In this document: one piece after another, positions 5,839 through 14,439 of the stretch
Layout of the letters: the number at the start of each line of letters is the position of its first letter
How positions within the stretch are numbered: the stretch's first letter is position 1
IMG/VR virus record: IMGVR_UViG_2690316311_000019
Length of the DNA stretch: 64,000 nt
Origin: a virus
Lineage: Duplodnaviria > Heunggongvirae > Uroviricota > Caudoviricetes
Direction: 5' to 3' (one strand)
The notes under the pieces: model-generated
What the model was told of the DNA's origin: nothing
The model's input: the letters and a program-made list of their open reading frames with translations, nothing else
The model's database searches: none
Position numbers and translations under genes: made by a program

Positions 5839-6194
5839 AGCACCACGTCCTGTGTGATAGTTATATCCCTGATACGAATGGATATTTTCAACTTATCAAA
5901 AGCATCTCCCTCGGCTACTGACAAGCCAGAAATCGGTATGTCAGGTAAATCTACCGTCAGTTTTTGCAACAGCATTGCCTCAACCGCAATTTGAACATGC
6001 GACAAGTTGGTCGGTTCGTGTTTAAACTGCGGTAAAACATTGCCCCATGACGGATCTCCGTATACCTCACCCTGATAAGTGTTTAGCCACTCATATAAAC
6101 GAGCGCCCCAGGCCTCCTCCTGGGACTCATACGTTTTTACGCCGGATAACTCCAGCGTCAGCAAAGGATCAATTTCGTTATTGTTGGCCATCAA
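5835..6194 (-). CDS. Hypothetical tail-associated protein
   Basis: 119-aa ORF coupled between baseplate gene and sit. Confidence 0.4.
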   Translation of the reverse strand: MMANNNEIDPLLTLELSGVKTYESQEEAWGARLYEWLNTYQGEVYGDPSWGNVLPQFKHEPTNLSHVQIAVEAMLLQKLTVDLPDIPISGLSVAEGDAFDKLKISIRIRDITITQDVVL

Positions 6195-9100
6195 TCAACT
6201 CTCGCGTAGTCATTCATCAACGGATCATCAATTGACAGTGGTACCGAGCGCATAACGCCCGGCTGAGGCGTGCTGACCTTTACGACAGTTCCCTGGCCTT
6301 TCGCCGAGTCTTTAGTGTGCTCTTCAATCCTGGCAAGCAATGAGGTCATCTGCGCAAACAGCCGCTTCGTTTCACCATCAAGTGAAACGGTATTATCAGC
6401 CAACTGCATTGTCGGCTTGGCACCGGAACCGCCAAGGTCACTAATAACCTGCCCGTCTATCTGCATACGACCGGTTGGTTGCTGCAAATCGTTGGCGGCA
6501 GTCGTCACCTGGGACGTGGAGGCTGGTTCAGGCGCATTATTTTTCCGCATCCCCGGCGAGTTGCGGAGTTTATCGAATAGTCCATCAATCCCCATTTGTG
6601 CGCCGAGATGGTCAAAGTAACTTGAGTTGTTGGCCACCGGACGCGCCTCTTCAACTGGCATCGGAGTATCAACATACACATTGCCAGCTGCTGTTGCGGT
6701 CCCCTTCCCTCGTGCACGTTCTTCTAGCGTTCCCTGAACGACTTCCCGACGCATCCCCCGGCCATTCATGAATTTGTTGACCAGATCGTTAACGCCAACA
6801 GCATTGCCGATTTTGTCGACCAGACCGCCTTTCTCAAACGGGCTATCACCAGGGGTAAACGCCAGGCCAGTAGACTGATCGATAACGGCGTTATCAGGTA
6901 TCTTTTCGTAAATTGCTGGTGCGCTATGATCTACCTTAGAGCCATAAACGGCACCATTATTGAGCATCTGCTGATACCCTCTGACACGAGTAACATATTC
7001 GCCGGTACCTGCGACTACTCTCCCCTTATCAACATGCCCCATACCAGCATGATAGGCAGCTATTGCACGACCCTGGTCACCGTTATAACGGTTCATCAGC
7101 ATACTTAGGTATCTGGCGGCACCATCAGCTGCTTTTCGTGTATCCATGGCATCAGCATCGCTGAGTCCAAGATCCTCCCTTGTACCTTTAGTGATCTGAA
7201 AAGCCCCAAGGGCAGATGAAAGTTTGTTCCCGTTTTTGTCTACTGGATTTCCAGTTCTCTGGCCTGCACTAGACTCTGCGGATGCAACTGCTGACAGAAT
7301 CCCTTTTTCAAGCCCATACTTACGTTCAAGCTCATCAAAATAATCGGCATTGTCAGAAATCCATTGGTATCCGGCAGCATTTAATTTTGGCAAAGAAACA
7401 TCCTTGCCATTGTTAAATCGACGTTTATCTATCTCATATGCACTTAATGCTTCCTCCTTACCTGTAGCAGACTGGCCCAAGGCAGCATCAATTGTTTGTG
7501 CTGCTTTATTTCCTGTTTCTACGGCATTTGCATTGATAATCTGATTAGCAGTTTCTTTAACTGTTTTATTGCTATCTTTCGCCATATCCAGGGCCGCATA
7601 TATCACGCGGGCAGCAATATTAGTCTGTTTGGCATCGGATTCAGTTTTAGAATCAGATGTCCCCTGGTGGCTATTAACCGGAACTTTTGACTCTGGAGTG
7701 ATTTCTTTCGCATTAGCCTCGCCGATCGGATTGGGTATTTTTGATACAATCATTGCCGCAGGGGTATTTTTAACGGCATCAACCGCTGCATCTAATGCTT
7801 TACCTGGTAAATTTTTAACCCCATCCCAAATATTACCAGCCGCCTCTTTAATGTGTTTCCCTGGGTTCTTAATGAAATCAATTGCACTATCAATTGCATC
7901 ACTGAAAACCTGTTTCAGGTTATCGACAGTAAAGAAGTCTTTGATGGCATCCAGCTTTTCAAGCAGCTTATTAGATGTATCGCTAAACCATGCTGAAACA
8001 GCATCACCAATCTTTGCTGTGTAATCATCGAACTTGGTAGAAATGGTGTCGCCAAGGTTAGAAATATATGTTTCTAAGTTGGTAATCCCACTATCAATGG
8101 CCAGGGCAATACTTTCCGTCGAAAATGATTGCAACATATTGCCGATATCCTCAAATCCAAGTGATTTGAGAACCTCACCAATGGCGCTGCTAATACCAGA
8201 TACCAGTCCCCCCATATCAAGAACATTAGCTAACGTATAAGCGGCTTTTTGCTGGAATGATGGATCTTGTCCTGATTTAAGCCCAAACGCTCGACGTTGC
8301 GCTTCTGTATCATTCCAACCGGTTACCGCACCATAAATACCTCCAGCCACTGTGCCGACTAGGGGAATTGCGCGTAACGCCCCTTTACCAACTGCCTTTA
8401 ATCCAAGTTTACCTGCTGCCCGGGCAGCCAAATCTCCGCCTTCATGAGCGAGAGTCTTCTTGCCACCACCGCGTAGCATTCCTACAAGTTTCTTTGCCCC
8501 CAGAGCGCCAAAAGCGAGTGCTCCAGCTTTTTTCAGCATGCCACGCCCCATTAACAACGACGCGACGCCACCGGCCCCCTTCCCTAACAGGCTAAATAGT
8601 TTGGACAGCAAGCCGCCCTTCTTTTTACCGGTGTTTTTGGCTATCTGATCAAGGGCACGGAGAATCTTGTCATTGCCCTCTTTAATTTCGCTGGTCTGCT
8701 CCTGAAGTTCCTGAACCGTCCGTTTTTGGGTGTTAACCTGAACGACATCGGCACTATTTTGCGATTTACGCCTAAAAAAACCTTTTCTACGGCTGTTATC
8801 GTCATTGCCACGAATCACATCGGCAATAGACTTTCTGGCACCATTAAGCGATCCACCAACTTCTTTTGATATCCCGCCAAGCTCCTTCCCTGCTGCCCAC
8901 AATGGACCAGCAACGGCATAACCTAACGCATCGACGGCACGAGTCTCTGAAGGGTTACCTATGCCTTCAGCTACTTTTGACAGTTTTTTTAATAAACCTG
9001 ATTCAGCATTTAGACGCTCATCATCCTCTTTGCGCCTGGCCTTTTCAGCACGTTCAGCACGGGCATCTTCCGCTGCGGCCTTACTCCCTGACTTTCCAAT

Positions 9101-9565
9101 AAAACGACCACGCGCATCGCGTTGGTTTTGGCTTTTTTGCGCACCGCCTTTTTGACCGAACATTTCGCGAGCGTGTTCGGCTGCTTCGGTCCGTTGCGCC
9201 TTTACATCTTCTGTTATAGCCTTCTTGCGTCGTTTTTTACCCTTTCGCGTAGTTGATTTGGCCTGCGGTTCCTGTAGAGCAACATCCTCCTGAACTACAC
9301 GAGAAACGTCCCCTAAATTAAGCCGTTTCATTGCGTCAACAATAGGGTCTACTGATGGCGCATTGGCCACAAAGTCTGGCCGGGAATTTTCGATTGTGCG
9401 ATTTAATGCCGACACACTGCGAGAGACAGGATCAACAGTTGCAACTCGTTCCCCTTTCAAATCTTCAACAGCTTCCCGAATACCTGCAAGCTCTTCCAGC
9501 TCTTTCGCGCTGGCGGTTTCAACTGTCCTTATAACATCGTCAATATTGGCGTTTTTTCTTTCCAT
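6191..9565 (-). CDS. sit: Structural injection transglycosylase / tape-measure-like protein with soluble lytic transglycosylase domain
   Basis: 1124-aa ORF; SLT motif region ...AVASAESSAGQRTGNPVDKNGNKLSSALGAFQITKGT...AAYHAGMGHV; Gly/Lys/Ala-rich coiled central part. Confidence 0.8.
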   Translation of the reverse strand: MERKNANIDDVIRTVETASAKELEELAGIREAVEDLKGERVATVDPVSRSVSALNRTIENSRPDFVANAPSVDPIVDAMKRLNLGDVSRVVQEDVALQEPQAKSTTRKGKKRRKKAITEDVKAQRTEAAEHAREMFGQKGGAQKSQNQRDARGRFIGKSGSKAAAEDARAERAEKARRKEDDERLNAESGLLKKLSKVAEGIGNPSETRAVDALGYAVAGPLWAAGKELGGISKEVGGSLNGARKSIADVIRGNDDNSRRKGFFRRKSQNSADVVQVNTQKRTVQELQEQTSEIKEGNDKILRALDQIAKNTGKKKGGLLSKLFSLLGKGAGGVASLLMGRGMLKKAGALAFGALGAKKLVGMLRGGGKKTLAHEGGDLAARAAGKLGLKAVGKGALRAIPLVGTVAGGIYGAVTGWNDTEAQRRAFGLKSGQDPSFQQKAAYTLANVLDMGGLVSGISSAIGEVLKSLGFEDIGNMLQSFSTESIALAIDSGITNLETYISNLGDTISTKFDDYTAKIGDAVSAWFSDTSNKLLEKLDAIKDFFTVDNLKQVFSDAIDSAIDFIKNPGKHIKEAAGNIWDGVKNLPGKALDAAVDAVKNTPAAMIVSKIPNPIGEANAKEITPESKVPVNSHQGTSDSKTESDAKQTNIAARVIYAALDMAKDSNKTVKETANQIINANAVETGNKAAQTIDAALGQSATGKEEALSAYEIDKRRFNNGKDVSLPKLNAAGYQWISDNADYFDELERKYGLEKGILSAVASAESSAGQRTGNPVDKNGNKLSSALGAFQITKGTREDLGLSDADAMDTRKAADGAARYLSMLMNRYNGDQGRAIAAYHAGMGHVDKGRVVAGTGEYVTRVRGYQQMLNNGAVYGSKVDHSAPAIYEKIPDNAVIDQSTGLAFTPGDSPFEKGGLVDKIGNAVGVNDLVNKFMNGRGMRREVVQGTLEERARGKGTATAAGNVYVDTPMPVEEARPVANNSSYFDHLGAQMGIDGLFDKLRNSPGMRKNNAPEPASTSQVTTAANDLQQPTGRMQIDGQVISDLGGSGAKPTMQLADNTVSLDGETKRLFAQMTSLLARIEEHTKDSAKGQGTVVKVSTPQPGVMRSVPLSIDDPLMNDYARVD

Positions 9566-11164: not shown

Positions 11165-11755
<591 letters not shown>

Positions 11756-11885
11756 TTAACCGATTCTACGAGTTGTCATTTGTTACCGGTCAGTCTACAC
11801 ATTTCAGATACTACGTTAAAACAACTCAAGTGCTTCAAGTAGCACATCGTCATCAACACCCAATCCGAAGATGCGGAGATAAAAT

Positions 11886-13070
11886 TCAAGCCTTAAGAGG
11901 CTTTGTGTATGTTCGTGTAATCCAACCAGTAATAAACTCATCCCCTGATTTAACCTGCACGTAAAGCCATTGACGATCTTTCTTATCTAAAATAGCAACA
12001 ATTGTGTTTTTGCCAATGCATTCAATCACTTCACTATTTAAAGAAGGACTGACATGTAATCTTACGTTATCACCAGTTATAAACCTAAAACCATTGAGAT
12101 CTTCCCACTTAATTTCTGTGTTTTCTTTAATTAATTTTTGTTTTGATATTGGTGCATCCTCATATAGGGATACAGAATATGATTCTGTCTTGTGTATTTG
12201 CGATAAGATTTGTTCTTTTGCATAATCAGCAATAGCGCCAAGCACCACTTCTGTTAAAAGCCACATAATAATAAACTGAAGCGGGTGAGGGAGCGACTTA
12301 AATGAATCAATGAACGTCGGACTGGATTTATTTAATCCTTTGTCTTGAACATCACTTTCGTTGTGAGATGTTTCAATAGCACCTTCGACATAAGCCTGTG
12401 CAATTGATGAAAGACTTTGCTCCATTATTTGATGTAATGAAGCCTTTTGCGCTAGGGTATATTGTTTTAATGATTCTTTTATTTCATTGTTTAAATCTAT
12501 CTTATGACTTACATTTTGTCGCAATTCATTAAGTATTGCTTGCATGTTATTTAAACCAGCTTGCTTATTAAGCATCTCGAACTGGTTTCGTAACGGCATA
12601 GCAATTTCTGCCTGCTTCCTTAGCATTTGAATGTATTTATTTGCATCATGCGGGGGATAAACCTTGGCCTGTTTCTGTAGAATTTCAAGAAATTCACGAT
12701 GCTTGCTATTTATTCTTCTCAAGCTCGTCATGTTCGCAAGCTGTTTTTTAACAGAATCACTAAGTAACGATTGCAAATTCAATCTTGCTATTTGTTCTTG
12801 AGCTAGCCGCCCTATTCTTAACTGTTCTTGCAAGTTTGCCATATGTTCTCTATACGATGGAATGATTGCGTTTTTTTGCAGTTCTGCCAACTGTCTAACC
12901 AAATTATTAGAAGCATATTCTGATTTTAATAAATCACTTGCCGATGTATATCCTGGCATTTTGATTTTACTTAAATTATCACGCCAGGTAATATTTGAAT
13001 CTCTATTATAGAGATCGCTTACTGAGCCAAGTGCAAGTTTTTTAATATCCTTCACTTTATTCACCGTCAT
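11886..13070 (-). CDS. Membrane-anchored coiled-coil protein with C-terminal SH3b-like domain (AT-rich cassette gene 2)
   Basis: 394-aa ORF; Q/L-rich heptad N-terminal region, one TM segment (LQFIIMWLLTEVVLGAIADY), C-terminal SH3-like stretch GDNVRLHVSPSLNSEVIECIGKNTIVAILDKKDRQWLYVQVK; markedly AT-rich codon usage. Confidence 0.55.
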   Translation of the reverse strand: MTVNKVKDIKKLALGSVSDLYNRDSNITWRDNLSKIKMPGYTSASDLLKSEYASNNLVRQLAELQKNAIIPSYREHMANLQEQLRIGRLAQEQIARLNLQSLLSDSVKKQLANMTSLRRINSKHREFLEILQKQAKVYPPHDANKYIQMLRKQAEIAMPLRNQFEMLNKQAGLNNMQAILNELRQNVSHKIDLNNEIKESLKQYTLAQKASLHQIMEQSLSSIAQAYVEGAIETSHNESDVQDKGLNKSSPTFIDSFKSLPHPLQFIIMWLLTEVVLGAIADYAKEQILSQIHKTESYSVSLYEDAPISKQKLIKENTEIKWEDLNGFRFITGDNVRLHVSPSLNSEVIECIGKNTIVAILDKKDRQWLYVQVKSGDEFITGWITRTYTKPLKA

Positions 13071-13563
13071 CTTGTTTTAAACACCCGTCATTTTTAGCTT
13101 CTGTATAAATACTGGAAATACCATCCAGAGTGAATGATGTGATTCGACTCGAACCGATATATACATCTATTTTTTTTTCATTTGTAGATGACACTGCCTT
13201 CCAAAATGAATACCATCCCCTACGATTAGGAGCAGTGTTTTGCGTGCCAATATTAAAACTATCCGGGCCAACAATTAAAGTAATTACATCTGCTTTACGT
13301 GATATTGTGTCGCGTGTAGAAAAATCGGCATTCTCTTTTCCTCCGCTTACATACAAATTTCTTCCAGCGATATGATCTTCTGAACCTTCCCTTGCTCCAG
13401 CATCACAGGAAAAGTTAATTGTGTAACCATCGTCATTGGTTGCAGAGATTTCTCTCCACCCTTGCTCACCTCCTACCGTCCAAACGGTAGAACCTGCCAT
13501 TGCTGATAATGGCAGAAAAGAGAACATTAATAAAAAGCTATACAATGACTTATACAATTTCAT
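13057..13563 (-). CDS. Secreted protein with signal peptide (AT-rich cassette gene 1)
   Basis: 168-aa ORF, N-terminal MKLYKSLYSFLLMFSFLPLSAMA signal peptide, overlaps downstream gene by 14 nt; AT-rich. Confidence 0.55.
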   Translation of the reverse strand: MKLYKSLYSFLLMFSFLPLSAMAGSTVWTVGGEQGWREISATNDDGYTINFSCDAGAREGSEDHIAGRNLYVSGGKENADFSTRDTISRKADVITLIVGPDSFNIGTQNTAPNRRGWYSFWKAVSSTNEKKIDVYIGSSRITSFTLDGISSIYTEAKNDGCLKQDDGE

Positions 13564-13651
13564 ATTTTTATCCTTTTGTTTTTAGATATTATAGGCATAG
13601 TCCATATTGTTAGATCCACTATGCCCAGAGAATTTAATATTATTTATTAAA

Positions 13652-14143
13652 TTATGGGGCTACACCCGGCCCCCTGGCTCGTTCTTCAAGCGTACCCTGT
13701 ACGTTTTGATGGCGCATTCCTGGGGCATTTCTTATTGAGTCAATGCCATTTCTTCCAACATCTTCTTTATTAACGGCATTGCTCGCCACCAGCACACCCC
13801 AGCTAGGGATAGCAAAATCAGGAGCGGTTTCGCATGCCTTTACCATATAATCGAAAGTGCTTCGATTGATCTCGTTTGCGTCGGGATTTAATAGGCGAGA
13901 ATATTGATATTTAGCATTTTCGTTGGTTGCGACTTTATATAGTTCTTGCTGCACCATCGCTTCAGAAAGTTTAAGACGTTTCATATCTGACAGTAACTTC
14001 TTGCGCATGGATTCGTCTTGACTGACAGCAAAGCCGTAAACGTGCCCAAGGTATTTCGTATAATCGGTACAAATCTCCTTCACGCTTGATGCTGCATTAA
14101 CAGTCCCAGCCATAAATAATAACGGTAGTAATAGTTTTCTCAT
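13652..14143 (-). CDS. Secreted protein carrying a Sit-like C-terminal motif (possible superimmunity-type protein)
   Basis: Signal peptide MRKLLLPLLFMAGTVNA; C-terminus GMRHQNVQGTLEERARG matches Sit segment GMRREVVQGTLEERARG; start at 14143 preferred (GGTGAGG RBS). Confidence 0.5.
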   Translation of the reverse strand: MRKLLLPLLFMAGTVNAASSVKEICTDYTKYLGHVYGFAVSQDESMRKKLLSDMKRLKLSEAMVQQELYKVATNENAKYQYSRLLNPDANEINRSTFDYMVKACETAPDFAIPSWGVLVASNAVNKEDVGRNGIDSIRNAPGMRHQNVQGTLEERARGPGVAP

Positions 14144-14239
14144 TATAACCTCACCTGCCTTATAACTCATTTAGGGTACATATTTTCGCCTTTAAAAAAA
14201 AGAGGTTATTAGATCCAATTGTGCATTTATTAAACAAGC

Positions 14240-14256
14240 AATGCTCTAATAAATTT
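14240..14256 (+). promoter_or_regulatory. C1-type operator-like site upstream of the immI-like operon
   Basis: AATGCTCTAATAAATTT, one mismatch to recurrent ATTGCTCTAATAAATTT motif, followed by TTTTTAAG -10-like element. Confidence 0.55.
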
Positions 14257-14439
14257 GTATTTTTAAGTCGCGAATGCTATCTTTTCGCATCATATTGACC
14301 TTTTAATCGTTCAGGCTTATAGTTCCGCCGTCGTAGCAAATTCTGCGACCAGGTTTGACAGCCTGAATGATTGTGCGGACAACCGCAGATTTCCGATATT
14401 GCGGTATTTTTGTGTCCGTTAAACCGCGTTACGCCCAAA

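Follow-up and report, generated by a model that had tools for sequence, protein, structure and literature searches.

A predicted secreted protein of the sim locus of P1-like phage-plasmids shares a conserved C-terminal segment with the tape-measure protein Sit

Analysis of a P1-like phage-plasmid (IMG/VR virus record IMGVR_UViG_2690316311_000019; the whole stretch of 64,000 nt that was analysed is called the window below) showed that the C-terminal 35–48 residues of SimA-long, a protein with a Sec-type signal peptide encoded in the sim locus, are homologous to residues 915–965 of Sit. Sit is regarded as the P1 tape-measure protein (PMC9024508); in the window it is a protein of 1124 aa encoded on the minus strand (6191..9565), and its assignment as tape-measure protein and injection transglycosylase follows from the ORF list, its SLT domain and the same paper. 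SimA-long, with 172 aa as listed (13652..14170, minus strand), is a member of the existing family phrog_3933 (E=2e-114), and its novelty among envelope exclusion candidates is the Sit-derived tail. The literature that we searched makes no mention of a similarity between SimA and Sit or of a truncation of P1 SimA; the 2004 P1 genome paper may hold one.

A sequence-only reading of the window had claimed that the C-terminus of the signal-peptide protein nearly duplicates a segment of Sit and that a weaker second match lies nearby, and both observations were borne out by alignment. SimA-long aa 151–167 (GMRHQNVQGTLEERARG, nt 13670-13720) and Sit aa 937–953 (GMRREVVQGTLEERARG, nt 6707-6757) agree at 14 of 17 positions, and BLASTP aligns SimA-long aa 131–171 with Sit 921–957 (21/41 identical, E=9e-8). 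The second match pairs SimA-long aa 143–156 with Sit 997–1010 (IDSIRNAPGMRHQN and FDKLRNSPGMRKNN, respectively; E=0.006). The similarity stands clear of a shuffled background: the Smith-Waterman score was 90, whereas 2000 shuffled sequences scored 38 on average (sd 5.3) and 69 at most (Gumbel p ~3e-6), and the best of the 89 other window ORFs scored 70 against Sit. In addition, positions 928–963 of the PHROG Sit profile, phrog_2533, match SimA-long aa 137–171 (E=3e-5), and the pattern [NSTQ][AGS][PR]G[MV]R is confined, across all six reading frames of the window, to three places, namely the SimA-long site and the two Sit sites. When the unique non-Sit ORFs of ~160 P1-like loci were searched (2582 ORFs of at least 50 aa, all frames), only SimA-long proteins matched any Sit C-terminus at E<1e-3.

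The Sit-like tail of SimA-long comprises aa 131–172 (13655..13780, minus strand) and includes the core RNAPGMRHQ (13706-13732, minus strand), which is universal in the family, and a second half, VQGTLEERARG (13670-13702, minus strand). The best pair across lineages was formed by the tail of the type found in phage vB_EcoM-Ro157c2YLVW (Ro157 type) and a Salmonella-type Sit (25/48 identical, E=4e-10), in which the alignment runs on through G-T-x-x-x-MGN-x-x-P. Since the Ro157-type tail matches Sit over 48 residues, the window allele is a shortened version of a longer Sit-derived tail. Directly after the motif the tails diverge, continuing as either GPG|VAP* or GPG|TNSPMGN..., and the window allele has a recombination joint right after ...ARGPG.

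In Sit, the matching segment falls within a conserved block (aa 895–957, TGLAFTPGDSPFEKGGLVDKIGNAVGVNDLVNKFMNGRGMRREVVQGTLEERARGKGTA; 6695..6883, minus strand) that is preceded by the SLT lytic transglycosylase domain (aa 742–847; 7025..7342, minus strand; Pfam PF01464, E=2e-14) and holds a first copy of the motif, GMR...ARG (6707-6757, minus strand). In an alignment of 19 Sit C-termini representing two SLT alleles that differ at roughly half their residues, 32 of the 36 invariant columns fall in this block, which has the consensus TGLAFTPG-SPF-KGGLVDK-G--VGVNDL--KF---GMR--VVQGTL-ERA-G-G and is constant even where the neighbouring SLT domain is swapped. The extreme C-terminus of Sit is also well conserved in those aligned sequences that reach that far. 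The two very different SLT alleles (GAFQITKGTREDLGL... versus GMFQFTxIAREETGL...) occur among otherwise similar P1-like Sit proteins, and because the tape-measure flank and the downstream block are conserved while the alleles differ, the lytic domain appears to be exchanged as a module.

A second copy of the motif in Sit (aa 992–1010, GIDGLFDKLRNSPGMRKNN; 6536..6592, minus strand) resembles a partial tandem duplicate of the first (GVNDLVNKFMNGRGMR) and sits in an insertion of ~55 residues (window 6536-6700) that is found only in E. coli P1-type Sit; the Salmonella, Klebsiella and Cronobacter-type proteins are without it. This insertion comes as two alleles, FDKLRNSPGMRKNNAPEPAS and YDKLINARGMRSNNSPQPAS, which assort independently of the SimA type. 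An exhaustive profile search of 1.84 billion representative proteins recovered the conserved block only in P1-like Sit and frameshifted fragments of it, the one further match being a spurious RCC1-repeat protein, and a word-index search with a 153-aa Sit fragment returned fragments only. P0067, one of the Sit proteins recovered, shares only ~40% identity with Sit of the remaining P1-like loci fetched; its motif reads RNAPGMRHQVATGSMADRAYG and keeps RNAPGMRHQ. Locus L082, which belongs to the P0067 lineage, has no sim locus next to pmgC, and since it nevertheless carries the Sit motif, the copy in Sit appears to be the older of the two. L082 (1-10000) is deep-branching, with tail and head genes directly upstream of pmgC and neither a sim locus nor immI there, and its DNA is visibly richer in G+C, as judged by reading rather than by computed composition. 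Sit was not resolved in P1 cryo-EM structures (PMC12810830).

Within the sim operon simA-long comes first, and it is divergent from c4-icd-ant (immI). Its translation probably starts at M10 (14143), because the Shine-Dalgarno sequence GGTGAGG precedes that ATG, and would yield a precursor of 163 aa. The predicted Sec-type signal peptide (MRKLLLPLLFMAGTVNA; 14093..14143, minus strand), with putative cleavage before ASSVKE, was read from the sequence and points to a periplasmic location. The mature N-domain (aa 27–135; 13766..14092, minus strand) is predicted to be all-helical, is unrelated to Sit, and contains two cysteines, C34 and C113, that are invariant in the alignment. Searches with SimA-long gave no matches in the PDB and sub-threshold matches only in Pfam. 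One of these, PTP-like phytase (PF14566), was rejected: the score of 26.8 bits lies below the cut-off of 27, the match covers only the helical part of the profile, and the CX5R loop is absent, the sole candidate cysteine reading CETAPDF without an arginine at +6. SimA-long also lacks similarity to SimC (phrog_14355), and simC is missing from the sim locus of the window.

Comparison with P1 indicates that the SimA of the classic phage is a shortened protein. In a megablast search with 11800-14300, P1 and its relatives match only the right-hand end (14004-14300; 95% identity to P1 47904-48200), and the whole ORF 13652-14170 on the minus strand was matched by phage vB_EcoM-Ro157c2YLVW only. The matching stretch of P1 holds simA, the C1 operator Oc4 and the c4 promoters, and is flanked by the simABC superimmunity operon and immI (c4-icd-ant). 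The region upstream of simA-long is 95% identical to P1 48070-48200; the window likewise has a C1 operator-like sequence, with icd and ant downstream on the opposite strand. A promoter and terminator scan of 11700-14400 found no promoter above shuffle expectation. P1 SimA consists of 52 aa, ends in AFAINDY* and lacks the Sit-like motif. When window 14004-14170 was compared with P1 (L001, 4009-4167), the two proteins were about 88% identical at the N-terminus (87.7% over aa 1–57), including the signal peptide and the segment ICTDYTKYLGHVY, and homology stops at ~aa 45, where the simB-simC cassette begins. P1 SimA is therefore a truncated remnant of SimA-long, the simB-simC cassette having taken the place of the 3′ part, and 'SimA' of P1 is probably not a functional protein in itself; simA is non-essential in P1 (PMC10695390).

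Eight hypervariable regions have been listed in P1-like plasmids, the sim region among them (PMC9603915). We tallied sim-locus architectures across the fetched P1-like loci: SimA-long followed by a YfjT-like secreted protein was found in 49 loci, the P1 type with SimA (52 aa), SimB and SimC in 27, the window type with SimA-long, a YfjT-like protein and a 394-aa SH3-domain protein in 24, and SimA-long together with a SimC-like protein (L046 type) in 4. SimA-long is thus the intact form and the commonest among the loci sampled, and since many lineages carry it, we suggest that it is ancestral, the original sim operon probably beginning with SimA-long and then the YfjT-like secreted protein. In the window, the latter is a protein of 168 aa with its own signal peptide (13057..13563, minus strand; phrog_3429), the counterpart of the gene that follows simA-long in divergent P1-like elements of the Salmonella and Klebsiella type and carries Pfam PF27224 there (YfjT, an E. 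coli prophage protein family). Because the phrog_3429 protein is nearly always found with SimA-long, the two may act as a pair. The third gene (11886..13070, minus strand; phrog_7086) encodes the 394-aa protein, whose C-terminus matches a bacterial SH3 domain just under threshold (PF08239). This gene overlaps the stop of the preceding one, occurs in no more than roughly one in four of the sampled sim loci, encodes a hydrophobic segment near aa 265–290, and contains a terminator-like hairpin at 11888-11903. None of the three sim-locus proteins of the window had a match in PADLOC or NCBIfam.

Searches for homologs of SimA-long retrieved 267 plasmid records, 126 of which cover at least 80% of the query, together with 69 IMG/VR loci and 23 protein clusters, some of them labelled 'simA domain protein'. 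Several of the matched database entries (P0003, P0004, P0007, P0008, P0016, P0019, P0024, P0028 and P0029) proved to be translations of simA-long or sit with frameshifts, most of which stem from read-archive (Logan) and ENA assemblies; they inflate the apparent diversity of the tails and are best disregarded. The family alignment has three parts: the conserved N-domain (aa 27–135), the motif Φ-x-N-(A/S)-(P/R)-G-(M/V)-R-x-Q, and variable C-terminal modules. The sequence-only reading had made its proposal depend on the motif being present in homologs, and this holds for one half of the tail. All full-length homologs found (Escherichia, Salmonella, Klebsiella and a Cronobacter phage) retain the core N-x-(P/R)-G-(M/V)-R-x-Q, even where the N-domain is ~60% identical. 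In contrast, the second half, VQGTLEERARG, is kept in three lineages, the window type (NVQGTLEERARG), L046 (NTQGALERRALG) and Salmonella L077 (KVEGTLESRARGNGVSP), and is replaced in others: JK004, L045, L079, L050/52 and L080 carry an unrelated C-x30-C module in its place, and L046 has both. Thus, only the short core appears to be universally required.

The Cys-pair module ends many SimA-long proteins and consists of ~35 residues enclosed by a pair of cysteines (F-K-x-C ... P-G/S ... C); examples are L003 9433-9567, L050 4897-5187 and L046 10547-10660. It is duplicated in L050/L052 and persists as an out-of-frame or decayed remnant past the stop codon in L077/L048. Neither this module nor the Ro157-type and L077 extensions matched anything else in the fetched loci, virion proteins included.

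The sequence-only reading had also described the two nucleotide sequences as related, which stood only as far as the shared peptide imposes it: identical residues mostly use different codons. Over VQGTLEERARG, SimA-long and Sit of the window differ at 7 of ~9.3 synonymous sites and at 0 of 23.7 non-synonymous sites; pS is 0.71–0.75 and pN is 0.15 over 19 codons and 0 over the 11-residue core. This saturation of synonymous sites rules out a recent copying of the DNA, by duplication or gene conversion. The SimA-long tail and the Sit segment are old paralogs, and we infer that the tail derives from a sit gene by capture. In 24 distinct SimA-long haplotypes of the E. coli type, the tail (29 codons) has 12 synonymous and 2 non-synonymous polymorphisms, compared with 33 and 10 in the N-domain (115 codons). 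The tail is thus at least as constrained as the folded domain and is held by purifying selection.

This constraint argues against a functionless relic, i.e., a piece of sit that was fused to simA during cassette shuffling, in a gene that may itself be dispensable. The sim region is indeed a hotspot of recombination, in which at least four cassette arrangements occur, the breakpoint lies immediately after the motif, and P1, with its non-essential simA, has lost the whole tail without obvious harm. However, a relic would fit poorly with saturated synonymous sites next to zero amino-acid change in VQGTLEERARG, with the excess of synonymous over non-synonymous polymorphisms in the tail, or with the retention of the core across lineages that are ~60% identical. 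Moreover, no decayed tail was found in the ~48 full-length loci that were read residue by residue, a reading that covered these loci and not the 126 plasmid records mentioned above. We therefore regard a relic as improbable.

In AlphaFold2 predictions, SimA-long forms a helical bundle (helices 30–129, pLDDT ~90 in the best model; the other four models were poor) followed by a tail with pLDDT below 50 (residues 140–172). For Sit 701–1124, the SLT domain was predicted with confidence; the conserved block and all that follows had low confidence, with residues 234–284 of the modelled segment below 50. In this model the motif docks on the SLT domain without any confidence (pLDDT <50), so that no intramolecular partner can be named from it. 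Both motif copies are thus probably located in disordered regions, and would act as linear motifs that become ordered only upon binding a partner.

A motif in exposed, disordered sequence of both proteins could also be a shared site for processing or a chaperone, with N-x-(P/R)-G-M-R being recognised by a periplasmic protease or chaperone that acts on ejected Sit. SimA-long would then be a competing substrate or inhibitor, or would itself be cleaved there, releasing its variable C-terminal module. The motif lies where the constant N-domain gives way to the highly variable modules of the C-terminus, which fits with this explanation, and a precedent exists in HK97, where a periplasmic chaperone is needed for tape-measure-dependent genome injection. 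On the other hand, since only 19 residues follow GMR in the window allele, cleavage would release nothing of obvious use, and the P1 virion proteomics paper reports no processing of Sit. Overall, we consider a processing or chaperone site unlikely.

A shared linear motif could act in at least three ways: as a decoy for a host factor, as a poison subunit that binds Sit, or as a shared address label. Our preferred, still tentative interpretation covers the first two, namely that SimA-long acts in the periplasm as a competitor or poison and excludes superinfecting phages by means of a linear motif derived from Sit. According to this model, SimA-long would be exported to the periplasm as a small helical domain with a disordered tail of ~40 residues. 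Once an infecting P1-like phage has contracted its tail and released Sit into the periplasm, the tail of the resident SimA-long would engage whatever partner the Sit block must bind, which would be another Sit chain or a component of the virion tip in the poison-subunit version and a host envelope factor in the decoy version. As a consequence, no channel would form and no DNA would enter, so that the superinfecting phage would be excluded. Both the binding and the exclusion phenotype of SimA-long are predictions from sequence. The data do not discriminate between poisoning of Sit or the tail tip and saturation of a host factor; the poison subunit is somewhat more likely, because few Sit chains enter per infection and the C-termini of tape-measure proteins are homo-oligomeric. 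A more pointed proposal, which we put forward with considerable doubt, is that SimA-long is a self-mimic: a segment that Sit cannot change, mounted on a periplasmic carrier, would act as a dominant-negative and jam the assembly of the trans-envelope conduit by Sit of any incoming P1-like phage.

The role of decoy or competitor in exclusion had already been proposed in the sequence-only reading, and the evidence now points both ways. In favour are the position of the gene at the head of the sim operon next to immI, the signal peptide together with the two invariant cysteines, a disordered tail under purifying selection, a near-invariant block in Sit, and the fact that SimA-long alone among the 2582 non-Sit ORFs resembles the Sit C-terminus. 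Against it, the residues flanking the motif in SimA and in Sit of the same genome do not covary (permutation p=0.34, 7 lineages), several lineages do without the second half of the motif, and P1 SimA lacks the motif. The Sim phenotype of P1 was mapped to the processed simC product. In some genomes the flanks do match, e.g., FMNSRGVRH in SimA and FMNSRGMRH in Sit of L080, or APGMRHQ in both proteins of L050.

The shared address label is the third of the possible actions of the motif, and one that we think rather unlikely, if well worth keeping in mind. The motif would anchor both proteins at peptidoglycan, an outer-membrane lipoprotein or another envelope landmark, so that Sit would place its SLT domain by means of the motif and SimA-long would bring its helical N-domain to the same site. 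The N-domain rather than the tail would then be the effector, for example as an inhibitor of the Sit transglycosylase comparable to T4 Sp or to periplasmic immunity proteins.

The P1 sim locus was described in 1982, and the shared motif links the question of how it works with a second one in P1 biology, how the phage DNA crosses the periplasm and the inner membrane. The motif singles out ~60 residues of Sit as critical for function and supplies a natural competitor peptide for probing them. The annotation of a classic phage also changes, in that P1 SimA is read as a truncated remnant. If the mimicry is functional, it would represent a compact and portable block against phage-plasmids that spread resistance genes, and would supply a search rule for other phages, namely to look among the secreted proteins of a prophage for pieces of its tape-measure protein. 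Should the self-mimic reading be true, target-derived linear-motif mimicry would be a new principle of exclusion, and a functional hot spot of the Sit C-terminus would have been identified.

Among known systems, P1 SimA (phrog_3933) shares the locus, promoter region and signal peptide with SimA-long and lacks its helical domain and Sit-like tail. P1 SimC is encoded in the same operon and is likewise exported by a signal peptide, but has no sequence similarity to SimA-long and no Sit-like motif. It is processed, periplasmic and presumed to act after adsorption. SimC and SimA-long are alternative cassettes that occasionally occur together (L046 type). The tape-measure helices, the SLT domain and the C-terminal end of the Sit family (phrog_2533) are all missing from SimA-long, which is not a tape-measure protein. 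Searches of PADLOC, NCBIfam and the PDB revealed no homology of SimA-long to described exclusion or defence families, and those of Pfam gave sub-threshold matches only. HK97 gp15 and the Ltp lipoprotein of Streptococcus and Lactococcus are prophage-expressed envelope proteins that block DNA entry with a specificity that depends on the tape-measure protein. Their families are unrelated to SimA-long, and to our knowledge none of them contains a segment derived from a tape-measure protein. T4 Imm, the precedent for our preferred interpretation, excludes superinfection by direct binding of the tape-measure protein (bioRxiv 10.64898/2026.03.06.709160). Like Imm, SimA-long is phage-encoded, and it is a putative envelope protein that is proposed from its sequence to act at the tape-measure step of delivery; Pfam, PHROG and PADLOC/NCBIfam searches gave no sequence or family relationship between the two. 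However, whereas Imm is a polytopic inner-membrane protein that binds gp29 without any target-derived sequence, SimA-long is, by prediction, a soluble protein of the periplasm, and its tail reproduces a segment of the tape-measure protein itself.
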